A DNA stretch of 64,000 nt from an uncultured Acidobacteriota bacterium (lineage in GTDB: Bacteria; Acidobacteriota; Thermoanaerobaculia; Multivoradales; UBA5704): NCBI GenBank assembly GCA_963732005.1, contig CAVSXT010000005.1, forward strand, positions 2,057,315-2,121,314, given 5' to 3'. The translations under genes were made by a program, and so were the position numbers. Under the pieces are notes generated by a model. The model was not told the origin of the DNA. It ran no database searches and worked only from the letters and a program-made list of their open reading frames with translations. The first letter of the stretch is position 1. Each line of letters starts with the position of its first letter. Below are positions 4,701-28,406 of the stretch, piece by piece.

Positions 4701-4772
4701 CGGAAGAATCCTGCCCCGGAAGGACCCTACCACGGCGGCGACTCTACCGGTCGAGCCTCCCGGCGAGCGGCT

Positions 4773-5324
4773 TCAGGTCTGGGCGAGGGCGTTGAGCTTC
4801 AGGATCGTGGTCCAGTTGCGGCTGGTCGCGGCGTCGCGGAGAGCCTTGCCGAAGCTGATCGCCAGCGGGCTGGCGAGGAGTCCCTCGTGGCACCAGAGAT
4901 AAGCCGCGCGCTCGCCGGCCGCCAAACGGTCCGGCGCCCAATCCTGACCGAGCAAGGGCTCCAGGCGCTGTCGGTCCGAGCGGTCGTTGAGGATGGCGAC
5001 GAGCAGGCGCGCGGGGTCGCCGGCGACGTCGAGCAGGGGATTGGCCGCGACGACGGCGGCGAGCTCTGCGGCCGTCAGCACGGTCACCCGAGAAGCGACT
5101 CCGAGACGCGCGACCAGCGATTCCTCGATGCGCGCGGCGACATCCTTGGCGCCGCCCTTGGCGCCGCCCGGCGCGGTGAACACGACGTTGCCGCTGTTGA
5201 GCAGCGTCCGCACGTCGCTGTAGCCCAGGCTCTCCACCGCCGCGCGCAGATCCGCCATCGCGATCCGCTTGGCCTTGCCGACGTTGATGCCGCGCAAGAA
5301 CGCCACGTGTGTGCTCGCCGGCAT
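4773..5324 (-). CDS. DUF1697 family protein
   Basis: N-terminal MPASTHVAFLRGINVGKAKRIAMADLR matches the DUF1697 signature; ATG start verified. Confidence 0.8.
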   Translation of the reverse strand: MPASTHVAFLRGINVGKAKRIAMADLRAAVESLGYSDVRTLLNSGNVVFTAPGGAKGGAKDVAARIEESLVARLGVASRVTVLTAAELAAVVAANPLLDVAGDPARLLVAILNDRSDRQRLEPLLGQDWAPDRLAAGERAAYLWCHEGLLASPLAISFGKALRDAATSRNWTTILKLNALAQT

Positions 5325-5352
5325 GGTCGTCCCATGCTAACACCAGGCGAGA

Positions 5353-6669
5353 TCAGGCGGGACCGCGGAGGCGCGCCAGACCGAAGAAGGGGTCGGGCCG
5401 GCGGCGGCCGAGGACGGTCTCGGCGACCTGCTGTCCCCAGGCGGGCGCGAACTTGAAGCCATGCCCGGAGCCGCCGCCGACCAGCCAGGCGTTGGCGGCC
5501 TCGGGATGGCGGTCGAGCACGAAGTTCTGATCGGGGGTGTTCTCGTACTGGCAGACGCGGGTCTCGACCAGCGGCGCGCCCGCCAGCGCCGGAAAGCGCC
5601 GGTCCAGCAGGGCACGAGCCCGCGCCAGCGCCTCGGGAGCCACGGTGCGCTCGCCGCCGGTCGGATCGAACGCCGGGCCGCGCGTGTCGTCGGCCACCTT
5701 GAAGCCCCGCCGCTCGTTGCCGGGGATGCCGTAGAACAGCCGCTCGCCCACCTCGATCCACACCGGCATCGCCGGCGGCTCGAAGCGCGGATCGCCGGCC
5801 GGGGTGCCGAAGAAGAAAACCTCCTGCTTGGTCGGCGCGATGCTGGCGCCGAGCACGCCGGGGAACAGCGCTCCGAGCCAGGGGCCGCAGGCGAAGACGT
5901 AGGCGTCGGCGCTCACCCGCGAGCCGTCGCTCAGGCGCAACGCCTGCATGCGGCCGGCGGCGACGGCCCCGGGCTCGACCCGCGCCAGCCGCATCTCGCC
6001 GCCGGCGGCGATCAGCGCCTCGACCGCGGCGGCGCACGCCTGCCGCGCCAGCAGGAAGCCCGCCCGCTCCTCCCACAGCGCCCAGCGCACGCCCGCGAAG
6101 GAGATCTGGGGAAAGCGCCGCGCCGCCTCGGCGGTCTCGAGGCGATGGTAGGGAAAACCCACCGCCCGCAGGTTCTCGGCCGCCTTGGCGACGAAGTCGG
6201 AGCCGTCCGCCACCATCCAGAGGGCCCCCGTCGGGTGAAAGAAGGTGCGGCCGGTGAGCCGCTCGAACTCCGCCCAGCGCTCGAAGGCCCTGGCCGCCAG
6301 CTCGACGTAGACCTTGTCGGCATAGACGGCGCGCAGCACCCGGGTCTCGCCCCCCGAGCTGGCGCGCGAGTTCCCCGGACCCCAGGCGTCGAGCAGCGTC
6401 ACCCTGGCTCCCAGCCGCCGCAGCGCCAGCGCGGTGAAAGCGCCAAAGGCGCCGGCGCCGACCACCGCGATCGTCGGCGCCGTCGCGGCGGGCGAGGTGC
6501 TCGCCGCTGGCTCGCCGGCCGCCGCCGGAGCTGCCTCCGGAGTCGCCGCCGGGGCCGCCGGCCGCGCCTTGGTATCCTCGCCACCCGCCGCAAGCCCGGG
6601 CACCAGCGTCGCCGCGGCGAGCCCTCCCAGCAGCGAGCGCCGCGATAGCTCCTGCGATCGGTCAGCCAT
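5353..6669 (-). CDS. FAD-dependent oxidoreductase (DAO family; sarcosine/glycine oxidase-like) with a Tat signal peptide
   Basis: Tat motif SRRSLLGGLAAA, dinucleotide-binding IAVVGAGAFGAFTA, and a DAO-like C-terminus. Start at the internal ATG (complement of 6667-6669). Confidence 0.8.
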   Translation of the reverse strand: MADRSQELSRRSLLGGLAAATLVPGLAAGGEDTKARPAAPAATPEAAPAAAGEPAASTSPAATAPTIAVVGAGAFGAFTALALRRLGARVTLLDAWGPGNSRASSGGETRVLRAVYADKVYVELAARAFERWAEFERLTGRTFFHPTGALWMVADGSDFVAKAAENLRAVGFPYHRLETAEAARRFPQISFAGVRWALWEERAGFLLARQACAAAVEALIAAGGEMRLARVEPGAVAAGRMQALRLSDGSRVSADAYVFACGPWLGALFPGVLGASIAPTKQEVFFFGTPAGDPRFEPPAMPVWIEVGERLFYGIPGNERRGFKVADDTRGPAFDPTGGERTVAPEALARARALLDRRFPALAGAPLVETRVCQYENTPDQNFVLDRHPEAANAWLVGGGSGHGFKFAPAWGQQVAETVLGRRRPDPFFGLARLRGPA

Positions 6670-6894
6670 GGACACACCTCTCAGTGGCGCGAATCGACGG
6701 TGGCATGGTAGCCGCCAGCGGGCGGCACTGTCGACCCGGCCCGGCCATCGACGGAGAGCCAAGGGTGGCGAGATTGCATTCCAACCGGCGGCGCCGCGGA
6801 AATGGCGATAGTCTTAGCCGTCGGCCGGTCGCCGGACGGGCCGGGGAGCCGGTGGCACGAGGCTTGCCGTGCAGTTGCTGGTGGAGGTGTCGCC

Positions 6895-7296
6895 ATGGCA
6901 CAACGGAAGAGCCAGGAAGAAACGCACAGCACCGAGGCCGGAACGGGACGTGCCGAACGCGGAGGCGGGTTCCCGGATGCCGACCAGGACTCCGGCGAGA
7001 CCGCGCCGGTGGCGCCTGATCCGCGGGACACCGGGCTCTTCGACGCCCGTGCGCGGACACCGGCGCGAGGGCTTGGGATCGAGGCCGGCGGTCAGGCCGG
7101 CGACACCGAGGGGGTGTCGCGGGAAGAGCTAGCCGGCCCGGAGAGCGTCGAGGAGCTGCTCGAAGAGGGCCAGGCCTTCGAGGCCGGCGTCATCAGCGGC
7201 GTCGAAAACGCGCCCGACGCCGATCAAGGGGAGGTGAGGACCCGCCAGGTGCCCGAGGACGACGTCCCGGAGGAGTATCTCGACGACGAGCGGTGA
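6895..7296 (+). CDS. Hypothetical highly acidic protein
   Basis: ORF with high GC3 and a Glu/Asp-rich C-terminus (EELLEEGQAFE...PEEYLDDER). No homology recognised. Overlaps the convergent LLM gene 3' end by about 70 nt. Confidence 0.35.
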   Translation: MAQRKSQEETHSTEAGTGRAERGGGFPDADQDSGETAPVAPDPRDTGLFDARARTPARGLGIEAGGQAGDTEGVSREELAGPESVEELLEEGQAFEAGVISGVENAPDADQGEVRTRQVPEDDVPEEYLDDER

Positions 7297-8375
7297 GCCC
7301 GGGTGCCGGTCGCGAGGATGGGGATCACCTCATCCCGGATCAGCTCCATCGAGCGCCGCACCTTGGCGTAGGGCAGGTCGCCGAAATTCAGCCAGGCGAT
7401 GACGTGGCGGACGCCCAGGCCGCGAAGCTCCGCGAGCTCTCGCAGGACGGTCTGCGGCGTGCCGATGCAGCCGCCGGTCACCTCGGGCAGGGGGTGGGGC
7501 TCCGCGCCGCCGGCGAGCCTGGCGGCGGCGCCGTCGTGGTCGTCGCCCCTGGGGTCGGCGTCGCCAGCGTCGCCGGCGTCGCCGTCGCCGTGGACCCGGC
7601 TGCCGACCGTGTTCTCCCAGCGTAGCGCCTGGCGGGCGTCGCTCAGCGCCTCTTCGTCGCTGGGCGCCAGCGCGACGCGGCGGAGGACCCGGAACTCGGC
7701 GACCTCGCGGTCGATCGCGGCCGCGGACAGGCCGAGTGCCGAGCGGCACGCCCGGTAGGCGGCAATGCATTCCGCGATCTGCGCGGCGGGCTTGAGGCCG
7801 AGCAGCAGCGGCACGCCGTCGAGCGCCGCCTGGCGCAGCGACTCCGGGCCCGAGCTGGCGCGCAGGAAGGGCGGAGACGAGCCGCGGAAGGGACGCGGCC
7901 GCAGGGTCACCCGGGGAATGTTCCAGAAGCGTCCCGCGTGGGCGAAGCTGGGCTGCGACAGGGCGGCGCGCAGGATCGCGGTCCCCTCCTCGAGGCGCGC
8001 CTGGCGCTCGTCGAGCGGCACGCCGAAGGCGCCGAGCTCGTAGGGGCTGAAACCAGGGCCCACCCCCACCAGCACCCGGCCCTGGCTCAGGTTGTCCACC
8101 CAGGCGATCTCCTCGGCGAGCCGCAGGGGGTGATGCAGGGGCAGGACGGCGACCGCATAGCCGATTCGCATCCGCCGCGTCCGCTGCGCCACCGCCGCCG
8201 CGTAGACCGACGGCGCGCCGACGAGCCCGAACGACGCCAGATGGTGCTCGGCGATCCAGACGCTGTCATAGCCGCCGGTCTCGGCGCGGTCCACCTCCCA
8301 GAGGGCCTGCTCGATCACCTCGCGGTCGGAGAGCGTGTCGGGCGCCGGCAGGAGCTGAAAGATTCCGATGTCCAC
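7224..8375 (-). CDS. LLM-class (luciferase-like) flavin-dependent oxidoreductase
   Basis: N-terminal VDIGIFQLLPAP...YDSVWIAEHHL luciferase-like monooxygenase signature. GTG start (complement of 8373-8375) with an AAGGAG Shine-Dalgarno sequence 5 nt upstream. Confidence 0.8.
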   Translation of the reverse strand: MDIGIFQLLPAPDTLSDREVIEQALWEVDRAETGGYDSVWIAEHHLASFGLVGAPSVYAAAVAQRTRRMRIGYAVAVLPLHHPLRLAEEIAWVDNLSQGRVLVGVGPGFSPYELGAFGVPLDERQARLEEGTAILRAALSQPSFAHAGRFWNIPRVTLRPRPFRGSSPPFLRASSGPESLRQAALDGVPLLLGLKPAAQIAECIAAYRACRSALGLSAAAIDREVAEFRVLRRVALAPSDEEALSDARQALRWENTVGSRVHGDGDAGDAGDADPRGDDHDGAAARLAGGAEPHPLPEVTGGCIGTPQTVLRELAELRGLGVRHVIAWLNFGDLPYAKVRRSMELIRDEVIPILATGTRAHRSSSRYSSGTSSSGTWRVLTSP

Positions 8376-8459
8376 ATGTTCTCCTTTTCGGTCGGCGCCG
8401 GTGCGGCGGGGCGCGGGTGGGCCAAGCAGAGCGATCAGATCGTGTCTTGCGCGGATTAT

Positions 8460-8529
8460 GGTACCAATGTACCAAAGTAGATGTCAATAGAAATAGAGGC
8501 TCGGCAGTCCTAATGCTGGTACATTGGTA
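8460..8529. promoter_or_regulatory. Perfect 13-bp inverted repeat (TACCAATGTACCA ... TGGTACATTGGTA) separated by 42 bp in the divergent promoter region; a candidate operator
   Basis: Read directly: 8462-8474 TACCAATGTACCA and 8517-8529 TGGTACATTGGTA are exact reverse complements. It lies between the divergent LLM gene (start 8375) and the RHH-like gene (start 8581) and spans an AT-richer TTGACA-like stretch (atgtcaatagaaatag). Confidence 0.5.
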
Positions 8530-8580
8530 GATGCGCACGGACCGAGAAGTCGAGGTCGTTGCCGAGAGGAGGCTCGCGAG

Positions 8581-8877
8581 ATGGCCAGCGCCAGAGGTAA
8601 CGCCGGTAGGGCGACATTCGAGGTGGAGCGCGTGCAGACGGGGGTCCGGATGGAGAAGCGGATCCTCAAGGTGCTCAAGGCGCTGGCGGAGCTGCACGAT
8701 CTCTCGCTCGGCGACCTGCTGGAGGGCATCGTGCTGCACGCCTTCGAGGGCAAGTCGCCGTTCGGGGCCGAGACCCTGCGCCAGGTGGTGGAGCTGAAGC
8801 GCATCTACGGCCTGGACCTCGACGCCGGCGCGAGCCACCGCTTGCGGGAAGCCGCCCGGAGGGGCCGCGGGCGCTGA
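8581..8877 (+). CDS. Small putative DNA-binding protein (ribbon-helix-helix/CopG-like)
   Basis: ATG at 8581 preceded by GAGAGGAGG. The sequence ...MEKRILKVLKALAELHDLSLGDLLEGIVLHAF... resembles RHH regulators. Weak assignment. Confidence 0.45.
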   Translation: MASARGNAGRATFEVERVQTGVRMEKRILKVLKALAELHDLSLGDLLEGIVLHAFEGKSPFGAETLRQVVELKRIYGLDLDAGASHRLREAARRGRGR

Positions 8878-8940
8878 GCGGCTCGCCGTGCACCGTGCGG
8901 TGGCAATGCCGTGCCGGAGGGAACGGAAGGAGTTGAGGCG

Positions 8941-10167
8941 ATGGAGCGGCGGCCGAATGGCCCGCCGGCGCCGGCGGGATATGATTCTGGGCTGGTGACC
9001 CTCTCCATTCTCGACGCTGTGCGCGATCCCACGGGACGGCGGGCGTTCCTGCGCCTGCCGGATGTGGTCTATGCCGGCGATCCCGGCTACTGCGCCTCGC
9101 GTCCCGGCGACGCCGTGGCGAGCCTGGAGCGGCGGGAGTTCGCGGAGCGCCAGCTGGCGATGGTGGCAGTTGCGGCAGGGCGGCCGGCGGCGCGGCTGGT
9201 GGCGCGGCTGTCGCCGACGCTGCGCGACGCATCCGGGCGGCCCTACGGCATGCTGGGGTTCGCCGAGGCGCTGGCCGGCGCGACCGGCGGCGCGGCGGCG
9301 GCGCGGCTGTTCGCCGAGGCGATCGCCTGGCTGCGGGCTGGCGGCGCCGGCGAGATCATCGGTCCGATGGACGGCGACACCTGGCACCGCCACCGCCTGA
9401 ACGTCGGCCCCTGGGACGAGGAGCCCTTCCTGCTCGAGCCCTACAACCCGCCGCACTATCGCGAGCTCTGGGAGGCGCAGGGGTTCGCCGTGCTGGAGCG
9501 CTACGGTTCGCTGCGGGTCGACGATCTGCCGGCCGTCGCCGCGCATCTCGAGCCGCGGCGGCGGCAGGCGCTCGACGCAGGCTACCGCCTGCGGCGGCTG
9601 GACATGGGCCGCTTCCGCGAAGAGCTGGGGGTGCTCTACCGGCTGTCGTGCGCCATCTTCGCCGGCAATTTCCTCTACACCGAGATCCCGGAGGCCGAGT
9701 TCGCAGCCCTCTACGTCGGCGCCCGCGGCCTGGTCGACCCGGATCTGGCGTGGATCGCGGAGGCTCCCGGCGGCGAGCCCGTCGGCTTCCTGTTCGCGTT
9801 TCCGGACCGCTTCCGCGAGGTGGCGGCGCTGCGCGGCGGGCGCGGGCCGGGCGCGTTGCTGCGCTACGGCGCGGCCCGCCTGCGGCGGCGCGGTAGGCTG
9901 CCGGCGGTGAACTTCAAGACCCTCGGCGTGCTCGCCGCGCACCGCCGCGCGGGCATCGCCGCAGCGCTCATGGGCCAGGGCCACCAGGTGGCGGCGGCCA
10001 AGGGCTACGCCATCGCCCACCACTGCCTGTTCCGGGAGGGCAACCCCTCCGGCCGTCTCGACGGCGGTCATGGCCGCGTGCTGCGCCGCTACCTGCTCTA
10101 CCGGCTGGCCACGGCGCCTGACGGCGGGCCGGCGGCGGTGGCGGCAACGGGGGCGGTGGCGGGGTGA
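8941..10167 (+). CDS. GNAT/FemAB-like N-acyltransferase superfamily protein (double-domain, about 408 aa)
   Basis: ATG at 8941 with GGAAGGAG upstream. Acyltransferase-like segments (PYGMLGFAE, GIAAALMGQGHQVAAAKGYAIAHHCLFREGNPS). The stop overlaps the next gene's GTG (GTGA). Confidence 0.6.
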   Translation: MERRPNGPPAPAGYDSGLVTLSILDAVRDPTGRRAFLRLPDVVYAGDPGYCASRPGDAVASLERREFAERQLAMVAVAAGRPAARLVARLSPTLRDASGRPYGMLGFAEALAGATGGAAAARLFAEAIAWLRAGGAGEIIGPMDGDTWHRHRLNVGPWDEEPFLLEPYNPPHYRELWEAQGFAVLERYGSLRVDDLPAVAAHLEPRRRQALDAGYRLRRLDMGRFREELGVLYRLSCAIFAGNFLYTEIPEAEFAALYVGARGLVDPDLAWIAEAPGGEPVGFLFAFPDRFREVAALRGGRGPGALLRYGAARLRRRGRLPAVNFKTLGVLAAHRRAGIAAALMGQGHQVAAAKGYAIAHHCLFREGNPSGRLDGGHGRVLRRYLLYRLATAPDGGPAAVAATGAVAG

Positions 10168-12188
10168 GGGCGGCCGGCGCGGGAGCAGACGGCGAGGGCG
10201 GGGAGCATGCCGCGGGTGCCGCGGGTGCCGGGGGCGCCGCGGGCGGCAGCGCCAACGTCATCGAGCTGCTGGCGGCGGCGGCGCGGCGACATCCCGAGCG
10301 GCCCGCGCTGGTGACCTCTGAGCCGGGCGGCCGGCAGCAGGGAATCACCTATGGCGCCCTGTGGCAGCGTGTCCGGCGGGTGGCGGCCGGCCTGCGGCAG
10401 GCCGGCCTCGCGCCGGGCGAGCGGGCGATCGTCATGATCCCGATGTCGATCGATCTCTACGTCGCCCTGCTGGCGCTGCTCGAGCTGGGCGCGGTGGCGG
10501 TGTTCGTGGATCCCTGGATCGGCTGGCGCCAGGTGGCCGCCTTCGCCGCCTTCGCGTCGCCCGCGGCCTACCTGGGAACGCCGCGCAGCCACCTGCTGCG
10601 CTGGCTCTCGCCGGCGCTGCGGCGGGTGCGGCTGACGGTCACCACCGGCCGGCGCTGGGGGCCGCTGCCGGCCGGCCGCAGCCTGGCGGAGCTGGCGGCG
10701 GCGGGCGCCGCGGCCGGTACGAGCGAGGGTGCCGCGGGCCACGCCGGCAGGGGTGGCGAGGGTGCCGGGAGCGAGGTCGCGGCAGCTGCCCGAGGCGATG
10801 CCGTCAGGAATGCCAGCGGTGAAGCGAGCAGGAGCGCCGACGCCGCCGGGGACGGGGTCGCAGGAGAGATCTTCCGGGCCGCTGCCGGCGACCCGGCGCT
10901 GATCACTTTCACCAGCGGCTCCTCGGGCGAACCCAAAGGAGCCAACCGCACGCATGGCTTCCTGCGCGCCCAGCACCTGGCCCTGGCCGCCGAGTTCCCG
11001 CTGGCGGCCGACGACGTGGACCTGACGATGTTCCCGGTCTTCGCCCTGCGCAACCTGGCGAGCGGCGTCACCTCGGTCGTCCCGGCGATGGACTTCGCCC
11101 GCGTCGACCGCGTCGACGGCGCGGCGCTGCTGGCGCAGATGGAGGCTCACGGCGTGACCACCTGCACGGCGTCGCCGCCGTTCTTCGACCGCCTCGCCGC
11201 GGCGATCGCGGCGGCCGGTGCCGGCGGGGGCGATGCGGGCGGGCGGCCCGACCAGGACCTGCCGCCCCCGGCGCCCTTGCGGCGGCTGCGCCGCCTGCTG
11301 ACTGGCGGCGCGCCGGTCGCCGACGAGCAGCTGGCGCTCTGGCGGCGGGCGCTGCCGGAGACCGAGATCGTGGTGGTGTACGGCTCGACCGAAGCGGAGC
11401 CGGTCGCCCACCTCACCGTCGAGGAGCGATTGGCCCTGTGCAGAGCCTCGGCCCCGGCCGCGGTCTTGCCGGGCGCGGCGCCGGTGGCCGGCTACTGCGT
11501 CGGGCCGCCGTGCGCCGCGGTGCGGGCGCGCGTCATCCGTATCCACGGTGGTGCGGTGACGCTCGACGGCGGTTGGGCGGCTTGGGAGGTGCCGGCCGGC
11601 GAGGTCGGCGAGCTGGTGGTCGCCGGCGACCACGTCTGCCAGGACTATTTTCGCAATCCCGAGGCGGTGGCGGAGAACAAGATCCGTGACGCCGAGGGGG
11701 TGATCTGGCACCGCATGGGGGACACCGGCCGCCTCGACGCGCAGGGCCGCTTCTGGCTCGCCGGCCGGGTGCACTCGACGATCTGGCGCGCCGGCCGGGC
11801 GGTGCACCCCCAGCTCGTGGAGCAGGCGGCGGCGCAGGCGCTGGGCCGCTCCGCGCAGGCCATGGCGGCGGTGGGGCTGCCGGACGAGGCGCTGGGCGAG
11901 CGGGTGGTGCTGGTGATCGAGGGCGAGGAGGACGCCGGCGTGCACGCCGCTCTCGCGGCGCGCCTCGGTGGCGGGACGGAGGCGGGCGGCGCGGAGCCAG
12001 GCGGCGCGGAGCCGGGCGGGGCGGAGCCGGGCGTCGGTATCGCGATCGACGAGGTCGTGTTCAGCCGCCAGCCGTTGCCGCGCGATCCGCGCCACCGCAG
12101 CAAGGTCGACTACGCGCAGCTGCGCCGGCGGCTGCTGCGCGGCGGCGGCGCCGGCGGGCGCCTGCCCGCGGCGGGGAGCGGCCGATGA
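10164..12188 (+). CDS. AMP-dependent synthetase/ligase (acyl-CoA synthetase / fatty-acyl-AMP ligase-like)
   Basis: AMP-binding motif ITFTSGSSGEPKG and the core YGSTEAEP...GDTGRLD. GTG start overlaps the preceding stop; its own stop overlaps the next ATG (ATGA). Confidence 0.85.
   Translation: MRAAGAGADGEGGEHAAGAAGAGGAAGGSANVIELLAAAARRHPERPALVTSEPGGRQQGITYGALWQRVRRVAAGLRQAGLAPGERAIVMIPMSIDLYVALLALLELGAVAVFVDPWIGWRQVAAFAAFASPAAYLGTPRSHLLRWLSPALRRVRLTVTTGRRWGPLPAGRSLAELAAAGAAAGTSEGAAGHAGRGGEGAGSEVAAAARGDAVRNASGEASRSADAAGDGVAGEIFRAAAGDPALITFTSGSSGEPKGANRTHGFLRAQHLALAAEFPLAADDVDLTMFPVFALRNLASGVTSVVPAMDFARVDRVDGAALLAQMEAHGVTTCTASPPFFDRLAAAIAAAGAGGGDAGGRPDQDLPPPAPLRRLRRLLTGGAPVADEQLALWRRALPETEIVVVYGSTEAEPVAHLTVEERLALCRASAPAAVLPGAAPVAGYCVGPPCAAVRARVIRIHGGAVTLDGGWAAWEVPAGEVGELVVAGDHVCQDYFRNPEAVAENKIRDAEGVIWHRMGDTGRLDAQGRFWLAGRVHSTIWRAGRAVHPQLVEQAAAQALGRSAQAMAAVGLPDEALGERVVLVIEGEEDAGVHAALAARLGGGTEAGGAEPGGAEPGGAEPGVGIAIDEVVFSRQPLPRDPRHRSKVDYAQLRRRLLRGGGAGGRLPAAGSGR
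11991..12035. repeat. 3 x 15-bp tandem repeat encoding (GGAEP)3 inside the AMP-ligase C-terminus
   Basis: gcggagccaggcggc / gcggagccgggcggg / gcggagccgggcgtc, read directly. Confidence 0.8.
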
Positions 12189-13150
12189 GCGACGGCGCCG
12201 CCACTCTCAGTCTCGCCTCGCCGTTCCCGCTCCGGCTGCGCGCCTATCTCGCGGAGCGCTTCCCGCTGCTCGGCCATGGCGTGCTCATCGCCGCCTACTA
12301 CTCCTCCAACCAGTTCCTCGCCCGCGTCCTCACCGCGCCCGGGCGGCCGATGCGCTACGACCTCTCGTCGCTGGCCGGCGCCGTCACCCTGTTCTGCTTC
12401 TTCTTCCACCTGCGGGTCTTCGACGAGCACAAGGATTACCGCGACGACTGCCTGCACTACCCCGAGCGGGTGCTGCAGCGGGGCCTCGTCTCGCTGGCGC
12501 AGCTGCGCCTGCTGGGCGGCGGCGCCATCGCCGTCGAGCTGGCGCTGGCCGCCGCCAACGGCCTGCCGGCGCTCATCGCGCTGCTCGCCGCGCTCGCCTT
12601 CTCGCTGCTGATGCTGCGCGAGTTCTTCGCCGGCGCCTGGCTGCGGCGCCACTTCCTGCTCTATGCCGCCTCCCACATGCTGATCATGCCGCTGCTGTCG
12701 CTGATGGTGTTCGCGTTCGCCACCGGCCGCTTCCCGTGGCAGGCGCCGGCCTGGTTCTGGGTTTACAGCTGGGTGGGCTTCTGCGTCACCTCCAACTGGG
12801 AGGTGTCGCGCAAGATCCGCGCGCCGGCCGACGAGATCGAGGGCGTCGAGAGCTACACCCGCGTCTTCGGCACCTACGGCGCCGCCTATGTGGTCCTCGG
12901 CATCCGCGTCCTCGACACCGGCATGGTGGCGCTGGTGGGCCACCACCTGGGCCTGCCGGCCAGCTTCTACGCCGCGCTGGTGGCGCTCTTCGTCCTCTGC
13001 CTCGGTGGCTTCTTCGACTACCGCTTCCGCACCAGCCGCGCCAGCGCCAAGCGCATGGAGCTCTTCGCCGGCATCTACATCATCGCCTTCGATCTCATCC
13101 TCGCCTTCGAGATCGGCCGCCGCTTCGGCATCGCTCCCCCGTGGCGCTGA
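12185..13150 (+). CDS. Polytopic membrane protein, UbiA-prenyltransferase-like (tentative)
   Basis: About 8 predicted hydrophobic helices and an Asp-rich loop, RVFDEHKDYRDD, reminiscent of the UbiA NDxxDxxxD motif. ATGA overlaps on both sides. Confidence 0.5.
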   Translation: MSDGAATLSLASPFPLRLRAYLAERFPLLGHGVLIAAYYSSNQFLARVLTAPGRPMRYDLSSLAGAVTLFCFFFHLRVFDEHKDYRDDCLHYPERVLQRGLVSLAQLRLLGGGAIAVELALAAANGLPALIALLAALAFSLLMLREFFAGAWLRRHFLLYAASHMLIMPLLSLMVFAFATGRFPWQAPAWFWVYSWVGFCVTSNWEVSRKIRAPADEIEGVESYTRVFGTYGAAYVVLGIRVLDTGMVALVGHHLGLPASFYAALVALFVLCLGGFFDYRFRTSRASAKRMELFAGIYIIAFDLILAFEIGRRFGIAPPWR

Positions 13151-16107
13151 TGAACGAGCCCGCAACGCCGAACGCCGCGGCCGCCGGCGACGCCCTGGTG
13201 GTGGCGGACCTGGCGAGCGCGGCCCGCCAGCGCGAGCGGCTGGGCGGCAAGGCCGCCAACCTTGCCCGGCTGGAGGCCCTGGGCCTGCCGGTGCCGCCCT
13301 GGTATGCGGTCACCACCGCGGCCTTCGCGGCGGCGGTCGACCCGGACCTGCGCGGGCGCATCGCGGCGCGGCTGGCGCCGTTCGCAAGGCAGGAGGGAAG
13401 CCCGCCGGGCCAGGTCCCGGTGGCCGCCGCCGGCGCGGCACGCGACCTGGAGGTGTCGACGCGCGAGCTCGACGCGGCGGCGCGCGACGTCCGCTCCTGG
13501 ATCGAGGCGCTGCCGCTGCCCGCGGGCCTGGGGGCAGCGATGGCGGCGGCGCACGCGGCGCGCATCGGCGCCGGCGCCTTCGTCGCGGTGCGCTCCTCGG
13601 CGGCCGGCGAGGACGCCGCCGGCGAGTCGTTCGCCGGACTGCACGACAGCTTCCTCTACGTGCGTGGCGAGACGGAGGTCGAGTCGGCGTTGCGGCGGGT
13701 CTGGTCGTCCGCCTACAGCGAGCGCGCCCTCGCCTACCGGCTGGCTCAGGGGCTGCCGCTGCTGGAGATCGCGGTGGCGGTGGTGGTGCAGGAGATGGTC
13801 ACGGCGCGCGCCAGCGGCGTGCTCTTCACCGCCGACCCGGCGACCGGCAGCGTCCACGACATCGTGATCAGCGCCCTCTACGGCGCCGGCGAAGGGCTGG
13901 TCAGCGCCGGCCTCGACGCCGACACCTTCGTGGTCGACAAGCAGAGCCTCGAGGTCGACCAGCGCCTCGCCGGCAAGCGCGAGCGGCTGGTCTTCGACGC
14001 CGAGGGTGGCAGCGGCTTGCGCCACGAGCCGGTGCCGGCGGCGATGCAGGAGGCGAGCAGCCTGAGCGCCGCCGAGGTCGGCGCCCTGGCGCGGCTCGGC
14101 CTGCTCGTCGAGCGGCACCACGGCTGCCCGCAGGACCTCGAGTTCGCCATCGACGAGGGCGGCCGCGCCTGGCTGCTGCAGGCGCGGCCGGTGACCACCG
14201 TCGCCGAGCTCGGGCCGGCGGCCGGCAACCGCCTGCTGTGGGACAACTCCAACATCATCGAGAGCTACTCCGGCGTCACCTCGCCGATGACCTTCAGCTT
14301 CATCCGGCGCGCCTACGCCATCGTCTATCACTGCTTTGCCGAGGTGATGGGCATCGAGCCGGGAAAGGTGCGCGCCCATCGCGTGGTCTTCGATCACATG
14401 CTCGGCCTGTTCCGCGGCCAGGTCTATTACAACCTCCGCAACTGGTATGCCCTGGTGCGGCTCTTCCCCGGCTACCAGTACAACCAGAAGTTCATGGAGT
14501 CGATGATGGGGGTGCGGGAGCCGGCCGCCGATCCCGCGGATGCCGCGGACACCGCGGGCACGCCGGCGCCAGTTGCCGGTGCGGCTCGCGTCGCCAGGAT
14601 CGCCGCGGCGCCGTCGCGCCTGCACCGCTACACCGTCGAGCTGCCGGCGCTGCTGCGCCTGGTGCTGCGTTCGGCGAGCAACTTCCTGCACATCCGGCGC
14701 ATCGTCGGCGACTTCCAGACGTCGTTCTCGGCGCTCTACGGCGAGTGGTCGGCGCGCGACTTCAGCGCCATGGCGCCGCACGAGCTGCTGGCCCTCTATC
14801 GCGAGATGGAGGACCGGCTGCTGTGGAACTGGAAGGCGCCGATCGTCAACGACTTCTTCGTCATGGTCTTCTACGGCACCCTCAAGCGGCTAGCCACGAG
14901 CTGGTGCGGCGACGCCTCGGGGTCGTTGCAGAACGACCTGATCTGCGGTGAGGGTGGCATCGAGAGCACCGAGCCGACCAAGATGCTGCTGGCGATGGCC
15001 GCGGCGGCGCGCCGGCGGCCGGAGGTGGTGGAGCTGCTGCGCGCGAGCCCTCCCCAGGTGCTGGCCGCGCAGGTGCCTGCGGACCCGCGCTGCGCCGAGC
15101 TGGCCGCGGCGGTGCGGCGCTACCTCGAGCTCTACGGCCTGCGCTGCATGAACGAGCTGAAGCTCGAGGAGCCGTCGCTGCGCGACCGCCCGGCATTCCT
15201 CTACCAGGTGCTGCGCAACTACCTCGCGGCGAGCGATGCCGCGGCCCTCGACGTCGCCGCCCTGGAGGCGCGGGAGGGCCAGATCCGCGCCGCGGCGGAG
15301 CGTCGCGCGGCGGCGGCGCTGGCGGCCCGGCGGGGCCTGCTGCCGCGCCGCGCGGTTTTCCGATGGGTGCTCGGCAACGCGCGCCTGGGGGTCAAGAACC
15401 GCGAGAACCTGCGTTTCGCCCGCACCCGCATCTACGGCCTGCTGCGCGAGCTGCTGCGCGCCGTGGGCCACCGCTTCACCGCGGCGGGGATCCTCGCCGC
15501 GCCGGAGGACGTCTTCTACCTCACGCTCGACGAGGTCTGGGACTACGTCGAGGGCATGGCGGTGACCACCGACCTGCGGGGTCTGGCGGCGCTGCGCCGC
15601 GCCGAGTTCGACCGCTACCGCGAGGTCGAGGCCCGGCCCGAGGACCGCTTCGAGACCTTCGGCATGGCCTACCACCGCAACCTCTTCCGGGGCCGGCCGC
15701 CGCGGCGCGTCGTTGCCGGGAGCGCAGGTGCCACTGCCGGGGGCGACGCGGGCGACGCGGGCGGGGCGGGCGACATGGGCGCCGGCGCGGCAGTCTTGCA
15801 GGGCACTCCCTGCTGTCCGGGGGTGGTGACCGGAGCGGTCAAGGTGATCCGCACGCCGGCCGACGACGCCAGCCTGGCGGGCGAGATCCTGGTCGCCGAG
15901 CGCACCGATCCGGGCTGGGTGCCGCTCTACCCGTCGGTCTCGGGCCTGCTCATCGAGCGCGGCAGCATCCTCTCGCACTCCGCCATCGTCGCCCGCGAGA
16001 TGGGCATCCCGACCATCGTCGGCATCCCGGGGTTGATCGCGGCGATGCGGACCGGCCAAAGGGTCCGCATGGACGGCGCCGCCGGCACCGTCGAGCTGCT
16101 GGACTAG
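13150..16107 (+). CDS. PEP-utilising enzyme (phosphoenolpyruvate synthase / rifampicin-phosphotransferase-like; PPDK N-terminal ATP-grasp plus mobile His domain)
   Basis: N-terminal GGKAANLARLEALGLPVPPWYAV (PPDK_N) and C-terminal GVVTGAVKVIRTP...GEILVAERTDPGW...ILSHSAIVAREMGIPTIVG (PEP-utilising mobile domain). ATG at 13150 overlaps the upstream stop. Confidence 0.8.
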   Translation: MNEPATPNAAAAGDALVVADLASAARQRERLGGKAANLARLEALGLPVPPWYAVTTAAFAAAVDPDLRGRIAARLAPFARQEGSPPGQVPVAAAGAARDLEVSTRELDAAARDVRSWIEALPLPAGLGAAMAAAHAARIGAGAFVAVRSSAAGEDAAGESFAGLHDSFLYVRGETEVESALRRVWSSAYSERALAYRLAQGLPLLEIAVAVVVQEMVTARASGVLFTADPATGSVHDIVISALYGAGEGLVSAGLDADTFVVDKQSLEVDQRLAGKRERLVFDAEGGSGLRHEPVPAAMQEASSLSAAEVGALARLGLLVERHHGCPQDLEFAIDEGGRAWLLQARPVTTVAELGPAAGNRLLWDNSNIIESYSGVTSPMTFSFIRRAYAIVYHCFAEVMGIEPGKVRAHRVVFDHMLGLFRGQVYYNLRNWYALVRLFPGYQYNQKFMESMMGVREPAADPADAADTAGTPAPVAGAARVARIAAAPSRLHRYTVELPALLRLVLRSASNFLHIRRIVGDFQTSFSALYGEWSARDFSAMAPHELLALYREMEDRLLWNWKAPIVNDFFVMVFYGTLKRLATSWCGDASGSLQNDLICGEGGIESTEPTKMLLAMAAAARRRPEVVELLRASPPQVLAAQVPADPRCAELAAAVRRYLELYGLRCMNELKLEEPSLRDRPAFLYQVLRNYLAASDAAALDVAALEAREGQIRAAAERRAAAALAARRGLLPRRAVFRWVLGNARLGVKNRENLRFARTRIYGLLRELLRAVGHRFTAAGILAAPEDVFYLTLDEVWDYVEGMAVTTDLRGLAALRRAEFDRYREVEARPEDRFETFGMAYHRNLFRGRPPRRVVAGSAGATAGGDAGDAGGAGDMGAGAAVLQGTPCCPGVVTGAVKVIRTPADDASLAGEILVAERTDPGWVPLYPSVSGLLIERGSILSHSAIVAREMGIPTIVGIPGLIAAMRTGQRVRMDGAAGTVELLD

Positions 16108-16138
16108 CGAGACGACCGTCGCGCCCCGCCGCGCCGGC

Positions 16139-17614
16139 TCAGGAATGAACCTGCAGCGGCTGGAAGGCGCCCCAGACGGCCAGGTCCGGGCGCCAGGCGG
16201 ATGCCAGGCCGGCCCACTGCAGCGCCAGGACCAGCGCGGCGGCGGCGAAGGCGAGGAGGAAAAGGCGCGCCGGCCAGGGGATGTCGGCCTCCTCCTCGGC
16301 CTCCAGGCCACCCTCGTCGCGGACCAGGGCGGCGTTCGCCAGGGAGACCGCCAGCACCACGGTGCTCACCGCCAGCAGGGGTGAGGGCGGGAGGCCCTGG
16401 ATCAGCCAGGGCGGCACGGCGACCGCCAGCCCGGCCGCGGCGCCGGCGGCGGCGCCCGCGAGCCAGGGCGCTGCCCGCAGGGCCCTCCAGGTGCGCGGGG
16501 TCCGCAGCTCAGGCGGCGACCCGGGCGCCGCGCGGCAACTCGGCCGCCGGCGCAGCAGGATCAGCAGCCCCGGCCGCAGGCAGAATGCGAGCACCGCGCC
16601 GGAGGCGGCCAGGTAGGGGCCGTAGGCAGGGTCGAAGGCCTGGCGGAAGCTGTTGGCGAGGATCAGGATGCAGAACGGCGGCAGCACGGCGCGGGCCAGG
16701 GTCTGCACCCGCGCCCCGCCCGGCCGCCCGCGGCGCCCGAGGTAAACCCAGATGGCAACGTAGGCGGCGAAGCCGATGAAGGCCGGCAGCGCCCACTGCC
16801 AGCTGCCCAGCGACCAGGCGCCGTAGGCGTAGAGGATGAACGCCAGCGTGCCGCCGGCGTTGAGCGCGCGTGTCCGCCAGACCAGCGCCGCCACCACCAG
16901 GCAGATGACCAGCAGCGAGAGGTTCTGGAAGATCACCTCGGCGAGCGGCTGGGCGGTGATCTTGCCCAGCACCACCGCCACCGCCAGCGGCACGAAGAGG
17001 TTGTCCGCCCCCTTCAGCGAGATGGCCTCGAAACCGGTCACCAGCGCCGCCACCAGCAGCGCGGCGAGCACGCAGACCGGGCGCGGCAGGGCGGTGAGCA
17101 GCAACATCGGGAGATGCATGGCGAGGAAGGCGATGACCAGGAAGACCATCGATCCCTCGAGGCTCTTGTACTCGTCCTCGACCTGGTAGCGCACCACGCC
17201 GTAGCGGCTGCCGATGAGCGCGGCGAAGGCGTCGCCGACCGCCAGCACCAGCAGCGCCGAGACATAGATCCAGGGCCGGTCGCGGGCGATGAGGAAGACC
17301 AGGAAGACCGCCAGCGGGTAGTACTCGACGCCGCGGCTGCGGCGGCTGACCCCATGCAGGCTGCGCAGGAAACCGAGGCGGCCGCCGAGCGCGAAGACGG
17401 CGGTGAGCGCCGCCGCCATCGCCAGCACCACCCACGGCGAGCGCACCAGGAACGGGAAGAACAGGCAGGCGATGCCGCCGCCCATGTGGACCAGCTTGCG
17501 CGTCCACTCGGCCTGCGGATTGCCGAAGCGCCGCCAGAGCTCGGCGGCGAGCAGCAGGCCCAGGAACACGCCGGACAGCACCGCCGCCCCCGGCAGGTCC
17601 GCGCGCCAGTCCAT
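16139..17614 (-). CDS. Membrane protein with an N-terminal polyprenol/dolichol-kinase (CTP-dependent, Sec59/VTE5/CdsA-superfamily)-like domain fused to a further multi-TM domain
   Basis: RKLVHMGGGIACLFFPF and VGDAFAALIGSRYG (a GDxxAxxIGxxxG motif). The ATG overlaps the BtaA-like stop (TGATG). Confidence 0.5.
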   Translation of the reverse strand: MDWRADLPGAAVLSGVFLGLLLAAELWRRFGNPQAEWTRKLVHMGGGIACLFFPFLVRSPWVVLAMAAALTAVFALGGRLGFLRSLHGVSRRSRGVEYYPLAVFLVFLIARDRPWIYVSALLVLAVGDAFAALIGSRYGVVRYQVEDEYKSLEGSMVFLVIAFLAMHLPMLLLTALPRPVCVLAALLVAALVTGFEAISLKGADNLFVPLAVAVVLGKITAQPLAEVIFQNLSLLVICLVVAALVWRTRALNAGGTLAFILYAYGAWSLGSWQWALPAFIGFAAYVAIWVYLGRRGRPGGARVQTLARAVLPPFCILILANSFRQAFDPAYGPYLAASGAVLAFCLRPGLLILLRRRPSCRAAPGSPPELRTPRTWRALRAAPWLAGAAAGAAAGLAVAVPPWLIQGLPPSPLLAVSTVVLAVSLANAALVRDEGGLEAEEEADIPWPARLFLLAFAAAALVLALQWAGLASAWRPDLAVWGAFQPLQVHS

Positions 17615-18825
17615 CAGCACACCTCCTCGAGGACGAAGGCGCTGTAAAAGAAAGCGCGGTCGTGCGCGAACAGCTCGGCGGCCTCGGCGTCGAGCGCGCG
17701 CACCCGCGGCACCCGCGGCGCCGCCGCCGCCGCCGGCGACGCAGCGGGCGCCGGCGGCGGGCAGCGGCGCGGCACCAGCATGTTCCAGTAGGCCAGGCGG
17801 GCGCCGGGGTTGGCGGCGGCCAGCAGGCCACGGAAGATGCGGGCGCAGGCCGGCGGATCGAGGTACTCGAAGATGTCCGACAGGTTGAAGCCGTCGAAGC
17901 CGCCGCCGCCGGCCGCGACGATCGCGGCGCCAACCTCGTCGATGGCTCCCAGGTGCAGCGCCAGCGCTTCCGGCCGGCTGTCGAGGCGCGCCCGCAACCG
18001 CGCCCAGACCTCGGGGCGCAGGTAGTGCGGCAGGGCGGTGTCGAAGCCGCCGGTCAGGATGTAGCGCACGTAGGGGTTGTCGGCGATCGGCAGCACGGTG
18101 AGCGCGTAGCGGGCGCGCCCCAGGATGCGCTCGGCCACCGAGCCCTCGACGTAGCGGAAGAACTCCGGATCGCGGCCCAGCCTGCCCATCGCCGCGCGGC
18201 TGAAGAAGAGGCGGAAGAGCAGCCGCCAGCGCCAGGTGTCCCAGCGCCGGCGGTAGAAGTCTGCCCGCCCGGCGGCGTCGCGCGGCGCCAGCAGCTCGCC
18301 GACGGTGCGGCGGCCATGGACGAGCGGCAGGACGCGGCGCCGGAAGAGGCCGAAGTAGTGCTCGAACTTGCCCCAGTGGATGACCCCGCCGGCCACCGCC
18401 GCGGCGTTGCGGTGCCAGTAGTCGCGGGTCTCCGGCGACAGCTCGCCGCCGAGGTCCGCGAGCGTCGCCAGCCGGTCCCGCTCCGGAACCGCCGGCCGCA
18501 CGCCGAGGAAGCCAAGCAGCGCCGCGTAGGGCAGGCGCCGGATCGCGGCGCGCTTGAGCTCGGCGAGCGCCAGCTGCGCCGGCGACAGGTCGACGGCCAC
18601 CACGTCGGCGCCCGCCGCCACCAGCGACAGGCAGTTGTCCCCGGCCGAGGCGATCCCCAGGATGCGCGCGCCCGGCCGCGGTCGCAGGGCGGCCACCAGG
18701 ACGTCCGCGTCCTCCCAGCAGTTGGCGTAGCGGACGAAGTCGAAGCGGGCCCGGTCCGCGATCCGGTCGGCGGGCGGCGCCGGATCGCCGTGAGCCTGGG
18801 CCGGCGCCGGCCGTTCGGGGTTCAT
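17614..18825 (-). CDS. DUF3419 / BtaA-like S-adenosylmethionine:diacylglycerol 3-amino-3-carboxypropyltransferase family protein
   Basis: FDFVRYANCWEDADVL...ILGIASAGDNCLSL is characteristic of DUF3419 (BtaA). ATG verified at the complement of 18823-18825. Confidence 0.7.
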   Translation of the reverse strand: MNPERPAPAQAHGDPAPPADRIADRARFDFVRYANCWEDADVLVAALRPRPGARILGIASAGDNCLSLVAAGADVVAVDLSPAQLALAELKRAAIRRLPYAALLGFLGVRPAVPERDRLATLADLGGELSPETRDYWHRNAAAVAGGVIHWGKFEHYFGLFRRRVLPLVHGRRTVGELLAPRDAAGRADFYRRRWDTWRWRLLFRLFFSRAAMGRLGRDPEFFRYVEGSVAERILGRARYALTVLPIADNPYVRYILTGGFDTALPHYLRPEVWARLRARLDSRPEALALHLGAIDEVGAAIVAAGGGGFDGFNLSDIFEYLDPPACARIFRGLLAAANPGARLAYWNMLVPRRCPPPAPAASPAAAAAPRVPRVRALDAEAAELFAHDRAFFYSAFVLEEVC

Positions 18826-18893: not shown

Positions 18894-19526
18894 ATGAGCG
18901 ACCAAGGGCCGCAGGCCGCGGCGGAGCCCGGCAGCCTGCAGCTGGATCACGCCGAGTTCGCCGACGGGCAGCCGCAGCGCTGCGCCGTCTGCGGCCAGGC
19001 GCTGGCCGGCAGCTATTACGAGGTCGCCGGCCGCGTCTGCTGCGCGGCCTGCCACCAGCGGCTGGTCGGGGCCTTCGAGCGGCGGCCGGGACCTGCCGGC
19101 TTCCTGCGCGCGGCGGGCGCCGGACTGGCCGCCGCGGTGGTGGGGGCAGGGGTCTACTTCGGCGTCTCGGCGCTCACCGGGTATCACTTCGGCTTGATCT
19201 CGATCCTGGTGGGCTTCCTGGTCGGCAAGGCGGTGCACTGGGGCTGCGGCGGCCACGGCGGCGGGCTGTACCAGGCGCTGGCCGTCGTCCTCACCTACCT
19301 GGCGATCGTCGGCACCTACGTGCCGGCGGTCTACGCCGCCTACCAGCGCGCCGACGTCCCGAGCGCGGTGCTGGTCGCCGCGACGCTGCCTCTCCGGGGC
19401 GGCGTCGGCATGCTCGGCCTGATCGTCATCGCCGTCGGGCTCTACGAGGCGTGGCAGCTGAACCGCCGGCCCCGGCTGCAGACCTCCGGCCCGCACGCGC
19501 TGACGCCGGCGGCCTGGCGGCGATGA
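18894..19526 (+). CDS. Zinc-ribbon-containing membrane protein
   Basis: AGGAG followed by ATG at 18894. Contains CAVCGQ...CCAAC (CxxC...CxxC) followed by about 4 hydrophobic helices. The stop overlaps the next ATG (ATGA). Confidence 0.55.
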   Translation: MSDQGPQAAAEPGSLQLDHAEFADGQPQRCAVCGQALAGSYYEVAGRVCCAACHQRLVGAFERRPGPAGFLRAAGAGLAAAVVGAGVYFGVSALTGYHFGLISILVGFLVGKAVHWGCGGHGGGLYQALAVVLTYLAIVGTYVPAVYAAYQRADVPSAVLVAATLPLRGGVGMLGLIVIAVGLYEAWQLNRRPRLQTSGPHALTPAAWRR

Positions 19527-28372: not shown

Positions 28373-28406
28373 GGCGCCGCCGCTGGGCTGGCAGGAGGCG
28401 GCGGCG

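Follow-up and report, generated by a model that had tools for sequence, protein, structure and literature searches.

A conserved seven-gene set found from Acidobacteriota to Bacillota includes a six-gene unit of an uncultured Acidobacteriota bacterium

Results

A gene set conserved across distant phyla

We analysed a 64-kb stretch of DNA (the window) from an uncultured Acidobacteriota bacterium (contig CAVSXT010000005.1), in which a sequence-only reading had singled out four tightly coupled genes at 8941-16107. The unit in the window is larger: it consists of six genes, 8941-18825, arranged in two convergent transcription units. The forward-strand genes encode a tandem-GNAT N-acyltransferase (gene 1), an adenylating ligase (gene 2), a membrane prenyltransferase of the UbiA superfamily (gene 3) and an enzyme related to phosphoenolpyruvate (PEP) synthase (gene 4, the PEP-like enzyme), and the convergent genes encode a kinase-like membrane protein and a DUF3419 protein. 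The unit belongs to a seven-gene set that is conserved from Acidobacteriota to Bacillota, whose seventh member, a paralogue of 3-hydroxy-3-methylglutaryl-coenzyme A (HMG-CoA) reductase, is present elsewhere. The four-gene boundary was therefore too narrow. No protein of the unit reaches the cut-off of a named NCBIfam equivalog, and by profile score the set proteins belong to their superfamilies and to no named functional family. We found no description of this gene combination in the literature, but the search covered few subscription journals and an earlier description is possible. These results agree with the earlier opinion that the combination is not a textbook pathway. The set is an uncharacterised pathway assembled from known enzyme families, and, with about equal weight for and against, we propose that it forms one membrane-associated pathway to a prenylated, N-acylated, amino-bearing lipid or lipid-like metabolite.

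Gene-neighbourhood conservation was examined with gene 1 as the query. A profile scan over one genome per GTDB species (185,579 genomes) detected relatives of its product in at least 436 pattern-matched stretches, from which we retrieved the 80 best loci and scored synteny by tblastn of the window proteins. The order GNAT-ligase-UbiA-PEP-like is kept in 37 of the 45 loci with at least 7.5 kb of downstream sequence, and the ligase gene adjoins the GNAT gene in 58 of the 63 loci with at least 2 kb. The four genes do co-occur elsewhere, so that the condition named in the sequence-only reading for its own refutation does not hold, and in Bacillota and Alphaproteobacteria they are found reordered. 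The labels of these loci are Thermoanaerobaculia, Holophagales, Pirellulales and other Planctomycetota, Victivallales/Lentisphaeria, Verrucomicrobiota, Legionellales, Desulfobacterota and Gemmatimonadota, with identities to the window proteins of 35-65% (GNAT), 38-56% (ligase), 48-76% (UbiA) and 45-68% (PEP-like). The closest relative, a Thermoanaerobaculia metagenome-assembled genome (MAG; locus L004), shares the layout of the window, and identities along the entire locus are 90-97%.

The convergent pair, consisting of the kinase-like and DUF3419 genes, accompanies the four genes in at least eight phyla or classes. In 20 of the 37 complete loci both genes are no more than 10 kb away, in a convergent or a colinear arrangement, and the colinear order DUF3419-membrane protein-GNAT-ligase-UbiA-PEP-like is seen, for example, in L043, L049, L051, L056, L058, L065, L071, L074 and L076. 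Where the pair is not adjacent, it is found intact elsewhere, either about 200 kb away on the same 8.8-Mb chromosome (L085 and L021) or on the same contig (L084 and L016). The DUF3419 gene always adjoins the kinase-like gene, even when the pair is about 200 kb from the other four genes. Clustering of all other open reading frames (ORFs) of the loci revealed no further conserved family around the set besides the reductase paralogue.

Some single loci have acquired additional genes inside the operon, which are unrelated or mobile and say nothing about function. These include an AAA-ATPase gene with an uncharacterised partner, which have the look of a defence system, between GNAT and ligase (L023 and L025), a gene for a Fic-domain protein between ligase and UbiA (L063 and L074), genes for a radical-SAM protein and a membrane protein on the opposite strand (L043, 4670-7517), and a sulfatase-like gene and an FG-GAP-like gene. 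Insertions at its gene junctions are tolerated by the operon.

Cultured bacteria that carry the set

A tblastn search of the PLSDB plasmids detected the full set in two cultured bacteria, Brevibacillus laterosporus B9 and Roseinatronobacter sp. S2. A search for cultured carriers that started from a Pirellulales GNAT protein returned metagenomic proteins only. The RefSeq annotation of the 137-kb Roseinatronobacter sp. S2 plasmid (NZ_CP121116.1, set at about 128.2-136.7 kb) shows six overlapping genes (UbiA, PEP/pyruvate-binding, DUF3419, hypothetical, hypothetical and AMP-binding), with a reductase gene immediately upstream. On the 1.38-Mb replicon of B. laterosporus B9 (NZ_CP011076.1, set at about 463.3-474.7 kb) the order is reductase-UbiA-PEP-like-DUF3419-membrane protein-GNAT-ligase, followed by a coupled cytochrome P450 gene. 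In both carriers all seven genes are on one strand, their order is permuted relative to the acidobacterial one, and their proteins are 30-48% identical to those of the window. The adjacent pairs UbiA-PEP-like, DUF3419-membrane protein and GNAT-ligase survive the permutation. The Brevibacillus proteins, too, all score below the cut-offs of named NCBIfam equivalogs. The strongest evidence for one shared process is that the same seven families have stayed together, despite rearrangement, in phyla that are very distant from each other.

In the Brevibacillus locus (L087), the operon extends over 6854-18242, including the translationally coupled P450 gene at 17016-18242. Two FecCD iron-siderophore permeases and an ABC exporter are encoded upstream (noted stretch 3727-5804), and an ETX/MTX2-family pore-forming toxin downstream (19135-20088).

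Anatomy of the operon

The GC content of the locus is 72-77%, and that of the window overall is 66-78%. In the frames of genes 1 to 4, the GC content at third codon positions (GC3) is 0.90, 0.92, 0.96 and 0.95, respectively, second-position GC is 0.47-0.60, and this pattern is absent from the other frames over the same DNA. Such a pattern is the coding signature of a 72-77% GC genome, and the four ORFs had been placed correctly, as tightly coupled genes with overlapping stops and starts. Gene 1 extends over 8941-10167 (+, 408 aa), gene 2 over 10164-12188 (+, 674 aa), gene 3 over 12185-13150 (+, 321 aa) and gene 4 over 13150-16107 (+, 985 aa). The motif GGAAGGAG stands 5' of the gene 1 ATG (8941).

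Three overlapping junctions had been described as GTGA, ATGA and ATGA, and the first two are as stated: GTGA at 10164-10167 between genes 1 and 2, and ATGA at 12185-12188 between genes 2 and 3. The junction between genes 3 and 4 is instead a 1-nt overlap of the form cTGATGa, with the TGA stop at 13148-13150 and the ATG start at 13150-13152; the letters ATGA are present at 13150-13153, but the TGA they contain is out of the gene 3 frame. An alternative start of gene 4 is GTG 13141. A public contig that encodes identical proteins had its genes called independently, again with a 985-aa gene 4 product and the 1-nt overlap. Short stop/start overlaps are frequent in high-GC operons, and for this reason they are weak proof of a functional link when taken alone; the evidence against chance is conservation. 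The earlier claim that the overlaps imply a stoichiometric complex therefore does not follow.

The convergent kinase-like gene occupies 16139-17614 (-), 31 bp from the end of the operon, and encodes a polytopic membrane protein of 491 aa from ATG 17614 (alternative start GTG 17620), which is 100% identical to a protein of a 2.98-Mb public contig. It overlaps the DUF3419 gene (17614-18825, -, 403 aa) by 1 nt in a TGATG junction.

The tandem-GNAT protein and the ligase

Gene 1 encodes an acyl-CoA-dependent N-acyltransferase of the tandem-GNAT (MshD/Eis/MAB_4324) type and is the marker protein of the cluster. It contains two consecutive GNAT folds and is 8-16% identical to its structural neighbours, among them the Eis aminoglycoside acetyltransferases. 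The GNAT assignment of the sequence-only reading was therefore sound, and its FemAB label was rejected on fold: the protein has neither FemAB family membership by sequence nor a two-domain FemX-like fold. The C-terminal domain carries a motif of the CoA pyrophosphate-binding type, H334-R-R-A-G338 (pattern R/Q-x-x-G-x-G/A), in which H334, R335, R336 and G338 are invariant among 15 homologues. The protein falls below the Pfam gathering score for GNAT (PF00583, 13.4 bits against 20.7), whereas the Brevibacillus homologue exceeds it with 43.6 bits. Homologues of gene 1 come almost entirely from Acidobacteriota MAGs (Thermoanaerobaculia and Holophagales), at 58-66% identity. An actinomycete origin of the DNA, which its high GC content had suggested, was rejected, as the nearest homologues are those of Thermoanaerobaculia MAGs, one of which (L004) is 94% identical.

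Gene 2 matches PF00501 (AMP-binding) with 167 bits and belongs to the ANL superfamily of adenylating enzymes. The A3, A5 and A7 motifs and the A10 lysine are complete: TSGSSGEPKG (250), YGSTE (406), GDTG (519) and the lysine in SKVDY (646). The protein is probably an acyl-CoA ligase. Its nearest NCBIfam model is PRK09274, "fatty acid CoA ligase family", to which it cannot be assigned at 364 bits (cut-off 478). The next is OleC, the olefin beta-lactone synthetase, which was rejected because the scores of 219 and 194 bits are far from the respective cut-offs of 900 and 850, and none of the OleA, OleB and OleD families is conserved near the cluster loci. Homologues outside its own lineage have about 500 aa (500 aa in L001). 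The 674-aa window protein contains four low-complexity insertions rich in Gly, Ala and Pro (10164-10250, 10695-10868, 11208-11276 and 11967-12032), which add about 170 aa relative to homologues of other lineages. A 15-nt tandem repeat at 11977-12033 (3.8 copies) encodes GGAEP repeats.

We note two further observations on these genes. In protein P0284 (532 aa, from a 2.2-Mb metagenome contig) the GNAT sequence continues in frame into the N-terminal part of a ligase and then degenerates, which is either a true GNAT-ligase fusion that was later frameshifted or an error of long-read assembly. A 66-aa ORF between ligase and UbiA in L001 was considered as a possible carrier protein, but the window has nothing equivalent, and we regarded the ORF as a probably spurious one in a spacer.

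The UbiA protein and the phosphohistidine enzyme

Gene 3 encodes a divergent member of the UbiA superfamily, barely above the Pfam cut-off (PF01040, 36.6 bits against 34.2) and far from the UbiA/MenA-type equivalogs (best 75 bits, cut-offs of at least 239). It is the best-conserved protein of the set across phyla. The first Asp-rich motif, D80-x3-D84-x3-D88, does not vary among 44 homologues, and a downstream P-E-R-x-L-x-x-G segment is mostly conserved.

Gene 4 matches PPDK_N with 255 bits and PEP-utilizers with 77 bits, and Pfam does not find the C-terminal PEP/pyruvate-binding TIM-barrel (PEP-utilizers_C). It has the architecture of the Rph/PigC/RedH group: an ATP-grasp domain, a central domain and a swivelling phosphohistidine domain, with a catalytic-type His943 (codon 15976-15978) in the SHSAI motif of GSILSHSAIVAREMGIP. 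The Pfam family Rph_4th is recorded in the gene 4 homologues of L001 and of the identical-protein contig. The nearest solved structure is the Listeria rifampin phosphotransferase 5fbs, with which the end domains align and the central domain does not. The best-fitting named model, NF004881, is narrowly missed (867 bits against 883; the Brevibacillus homologue scores 789). The label "PEP synthase" holds at the family level only, as the pyruvate-binding domain is missing and the scores for PpsA are 272 of 740 bits (TIGR01418) and 286 of 598 (NF005057). True Rph, PigC and RedH were likewise rejected, with 324 of 999, 308 of 1300 and 364 of 1350 bits, respectively. We consider the protein a putative ATP-dependent phosphotransferase. 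The remaining identities proposed for the four genes, AMP-ligase and UbiA, were confirmed by the Pfam matches given above.

The convergent pair and the reductase paralogue

The kinase-like protein is well conserved over its first 220 residues, and its C-terminal half forms a transmembrane domain that varies. Its invariant motifs are E-x2-R-K-x2-H, D130-x2-A-A-x2-G, (K-S-x-E)-G-S and G-x-D-N-x3-P, which we take to be the signature of the CdsA/dolichol-kinase/phytol-kinase superfamily. Many homologues are named phytol or dolichol kinase by JGI, and one is a "diacylglycerol/polyprenol kinase family protein" at NCBI. The N-terminal half thus appears polyprenol/dolichol/phytol-kinase-like (COG0170, of the cytidine triphosphate (CTP)-transferase superfamily).

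The DUF3419 protein, a transferase of the BtaA family that would depend on S-adenosylmethionine (SAM), matches PF11899 with 199 bits over its full length (profile positions 8-382 of 385). Residues 43-94, near the N-terminus, match a SAM-methyltransferase-like motif weakly. A DUF3419 gene also occurs on the Rhizobium sp. plasmid pMK-2 (L088, 1-6155), in surroundings that differ greatly and look conserved themselves, with genes for a ketoacyl synthase (KAS) III, an NAD(P) oxidoreductase, an MBL-fold hydrolase, a CoF synthetase and a hypothetical protein.

A class-I-like HMG-CoA-reductase paralogue abuts the DUF3419 gene in 18 loci of several phyla, including two Thermoanaerobaculia, and is part of the set in most other lineages. 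It scores 372 bits for PF00368 and 332-345 bits for TIGR00533, against a cut-off of 441.8.

Neighbouring genes and other features of the window

A small ORF precedes the operon at 8581-8877 (+), with 98 aa from ATG 8581 or 75 aa from ATG 8650. It has coding-type GC3 and a GAGGAGG 10 nt before ATG 8581, and it has no Pfam or NCBIfam match. It is 99% identical in L004 and was found by tblastn in no other fetched locus. From the appearance of its sequence (…MEKRILKVLKALAELHDLSLGDLLEGIV…), it may encode a lineage-specific operon regulator of the ribbon-helix-helix type, and whether it is a member of the conserved unit is uncertain. Divergent from the operon is a gene for an LLM-class luciferase-like oxidoreductase (7224-8375, -), whose promoter-like site at 8487-8458 is the sole sigma-70-like site of the region. 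It adjoins the cluster in the window and L004 only, and the idea that it substitutes for the missing HMG-CoA-reductase paralogue is pure speculation.

Around GNAT genes that stand apart from the set, xanthine-dehydrogenase-type genes follow the GNAT gene in L003, and in Holophagales-type loci with a lone GNAT gene a conserved gene for about 530 aa, with no family match, precedes it.

Elsewhere in the window, no isoprenoid or lipid genes were found between 23 and 41 kb. The stretch 24538-29657 (+) encodes three HlyD-type membrane-fusion paralogues one after another and then a MacB/FtsX permease, and three such adaptors in a row are unusual. A tRNA-Tyr gene (41216-41302, +) is followed by about 7 kb of lower-GC DNA (62-67%; 41.3-48.8 kb) with a gene for a 1010-aa CHAT-domain protein (42512-45544, -) and three ORFs without family match, which looks like an island inserted at the tRNA gene.

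Comparison with known systems

The closest known systems share one or two elements each with the set, and none shares the whole. In the BtaA/BtaB betaine-lipid pathway (diacylglyceryltrimethylhomoserine, DGTS; Rhodobacter, Agrobacterium and algae), BtaA uses SAM to place a homoserine-type group on the hydroxyl of a membrane lipid, and the DUF3419 protein of the cluster matches the Pfam family of BtaA over its full length. Published papers are said to connect DUF3419 to betaine lipids. Unlike that pathway, the cluster has no BtaB-type N-methyltransferase, and its DUF3419 protein is tied to the kinase-like protein, GNAT, ligase, UbiA and phosphotransferase. Phytol/prenol salvage (VTE5, VTE6, and HPT or chlorophyll synthase) likewise combines a UbiA-family enzyme with a COG0170-type membrane kinase, which the kinase-like protein of the cluster may be, and needs a second phosphorylation. 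However, no VTE6 (DUF92) homologue was seen in the cluster, which has an ATP-grasp/phosphohistidine enzyme beside UbiA instead; its kinase-like protein has the additional variable C-terminal transmembrane domain, and its carriers are not known phototrophs.

The three-part architecture and the catalytic-type His of gene 4 are common to Rph and PigC/RedH, but gene 4 scores at most one third of their equivalog cut-offs, its central domain is unaligned with Rph structures, and the gene context is entirely different. Archaeal digeranylgeranylglyceryl phosphate (DGGGP) synthase and CarS similarly pair a UbiA-family enzyme with a membrane protein of the CTP-transferase superfamily, to which the kinase-like protein may belong. 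The Brevibacillus UbiA homologue matches PRK12884 ("prenyltransferase", E 1.6e-7) and PRK12883 (geranylgeranylglyceryl phosphate (GGGP) geranylgeranyltransferase, E 1.1e-6) weakly and far under their cut-offs. The cluster lacks GGGP synthase and glycerol-1-phosphate dehydrogenase, and the likeness to the archaeal ether-lipid enzymes is a resemblance only. Couples of a ligase and a GNAT protein are also found in fungal SidI/SidF, mammalian ACSM/GLYAT and mycothiol MshD; by sequence the cluster proteins are outside these families, and the cluster contains no hydratase or hydroxylase partner.

A recent aminolipid pathway, the OlsH/OlsI route to ornithine lipid, occurs in planctomycetes, a phylum that also carries the present cluster. 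It begins with an ATP-dependent adenylating enzyme that forms an N-acyl amino acid, OlsH being a GH3-type enzyme and OlsI an alpha/beta-hydrolase; as described, the route differs from the cluster in having no UbiA, phosphotransferase or DUF3419 protein (PMC12493201). The Lipocone survey describes UbiA and HMG-CoA-reductase neighbourhoods that are systems other than the present set (PMC12419801).

Discussion

The conserved set can be read as a pathway from the properties of its families: the CoA motif of the GNAT protein, the ANL motifs of the ligase, the first motif of UbiA, and the phosphohistidine enzyme without a pyruvate-binding domain. We have much less confidence in the single steps than in the general statement. 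The ligase would convert a carboxylic acid into an acyl-CoA, and the tandem-GNAT protein would use this thioester for the N-acylation of an amine. The acceptor would most likely be a 3-amino-3-carboxypropyl (homoserine-type) group, moved from SAM to a lipid hydroxyl by the BtaA-like enzyme, because this is the most economical source of an amine inside the set. BtaA itself transfers the C4 amino-acid moiety of SAM to diacylglycerol. The UbiA protein would attach an isoprenoid chain from a prenyl diphosphate, and two phosphotransferases may act stepwise on a lipid alcohol that is thereby made or recycled into the diphosphate donor of UbiA. The first phosphorylation would be carried out by the CTP-type membrane kinase and the second, through phosphohistidine, by the Rph/PigC-like enzyme. 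VTE5, Sec59 and FOLK, which supply UbiA-family enzymes, are prenol kinases that use CTP, and in Rph, PigC and RedH a phosphohistidine serves to phosphorylate an oxygen atom of a hydrophobic substrate. Where it is present, the reductase paralogue could supply the alcohol, in the form of mevalonate or through four-electron reduction of the ligase's acyl-CoA product; HMG-CoA reductase turns a CoA thioester into a primary alcohol. As the product we predict a phosphorus-poor, isoprenoid-bearing, N-acylated lipid or lipid-like metabolite. A membrane-associated product that is acylated and/or phosphorylated had been suggested before, which we judge plausible, with the correction that it would be made by more than four genes.

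A more specific version of this pathway joins all steps and would be an undescribed route from a carboxylic acid to a donor that is a prenyl, or allylic alkyl, diphosphate. The acid would be converted to a CoA thioester by the ligase, to an alcohol by the HMG-CoA-reductase paralogue, to a monophosphate by the CTP-type membrane kinase, and to a diphosphate by the PEP-synthase/Rph-type phosphohistidine enzyme, acting as the long-sought prenyl-phosphate kinase. UbiA would then build a phosphorus-free, homoserine-headed, N-acylated isoprenoid ether lipid. We consider this chain as a whole quite unlikely. If true, it would represent a new class of bacterial membrane lipid in soil Acidobacteriota, Planctomycetota, Victivallales, Desulfobacterota, Gemmatimonadota and some Bacillota.

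Several observations weigh against the proposed lipid pathway. We infer all of its substrates and the order of its steps. The second Asp-rich motif of UbiA is non-canonical, N204-W-E-x-S-R-K-I-R...E217-x2-G without D-x3-D, although function may be retained through the Glu residues of this second block. The kinase-like protein and 19 homologues have no Pfam or NCBIfam match, and the protein has neither a sequence match nor a fold match in the PDB. When its profile was aligned with E. coli CdsA by hhalign, the motif region was aligned, with a non-significant probability of 0.5%. The kinase assignment is drawn from the motifs and from third-party annotation. No methyltransferase family that could represent BtaB is conserved in the cluster neighbourhood of the loci examined, and DUF3419 proteins in unrelated clusters, such as that of pMK-2, indicate that the family is not confined to betaine-lipid synthesis and that BtaA-type chemistry is not guaranteed. 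A tblastn search of the 64-kb window for the HMG-CoA-reductase paralogue was empty. We know of no precedent for a phosphate monoester as acceptor in the Rph/PigC group. Finally, five loci (L003, L010, L016, L040 and L072) have a GNAT gene without ligase, UbiA and PEP-like genes within 10 kb.

The same enzymes might instead make a diffusible specialised metabolite, which could be an antibiotic, a signal, a compound resembling a siderophore or a prenylated N-acyl amino acid, with the PEP-like enzyme either activating an oxygen for condensation, as PigC and RedH do, or phosphorylating the final product. We think this rather unlikely. The patchy distribution of the set (at least 436 stretches with the marker GNAT among 185,579 species genomes), the copy on a 137-kb plasmid and the coupled P450 gene of Brevibacillus fit such a metabolite as well as they fit a membrane lipid. 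The FecCD permeases and ABC exporter near the Brevibacillus genes point in the same direction, as does the presence of the prodiginine ligases PigC and RedH among the nearest named relatives of gene 4. In fungal siderophore synthesis, HMG-CoA reductase, an acyl-CoA ligase and a GNAT protein attach mevalonate-derived acyl groups (SidI and SidF). On the other hand, no transporter, regulator, nonribosomal peptide synthetase, polyketide synthase or terpene synthase is conserved with the set, two of its seven proteins are polytopic membrane enzymes, and the BtaA family acts on a membrane lipid. The cross-phylum conservation of UbiA (48-76%) and the PEP-like enzyme (45-68%) is also high for a cluster of this kind.

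It is improbable that the set salvages isoprenoid acids or alcohols and makes no novel product, with the ligase, reductase paralogue, membrane kinase, PEP-like enzyme and UbiA leading, for example, to a quinone, and with GNAT and DUF3419 as accessories. Five of the seven enzymes do form a linear chain in which each would perform chemistry typical of its family, and the phytol salvage of plants and cyanobacteria (VTE5, VTE6 and the UbiA-family HPT) is a precedent. The second kinase of farnesol/geranylgeraniol salvage is said in a review to be missing in many organisms. But salvage gives no role to the tandem-GNAT and DUF3419 proteins, which are the most cluster-specific and as strictly conserved as the rest. 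In addition, the ligase is always paired with GNAT and not with the reductase, the window carries no reductase paralogue, and UbiA is far from the UbiA/MenA-type equivalogs, as its best score of 75 bits shows.

An antibiotic-inactivation island, in which a rifamycin-type phosphotransferase and an Eis-like acetyltransferase are combined with otherwise unrelated genes, is very improbable. The rifampin phosphotransferase is the nearest solved structure to gene 4, and Eis is among the structural neighbours of gene 1. However, gene 4 reaches 324 of the 999 bits of the Rph cut-off and aligns in its ATP-grasp and His domains alone, gene 1 is only 8-16% identical to those neighbours, and both genes are kept in cross-phylum synteny with UbiA, ligase, the lipid-kinase-like protein and DUF3419. 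The chance packing of four unrelated housekeeping genes in a compact high-GC genome, in which short overlaps are common, has a negligible probability and is refuted by the synteny data, as the genes are together in 37 of 45 informative loci and also, reordered, in Bacillota and Alphaproteobacteria, and none reaches a named housekeeping equivalog cut-off.

The proposed membrane-associated pathway is directly testable, because the complete operon is present in cultured B. laterosporus B9 and on the plasmid of Roseinatronobacter sp. S2. The set is widely distributed and apparently never characterised, and its seven families are rarely seen together, a combination that would be unexpected for specialists in bacterial lipids or isoprenoids. 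A gap in prenol salvage would be closed if prenyl phosphates prove to be substrates of the PEP-like enzyme. For a diffusible product, the set would offer genome mining a biosynthetic logic that is new. A membrane lipid would mean a new lipid class for abundant, poorly cultured soil and sediment phyla, and possibly a new biomarker.

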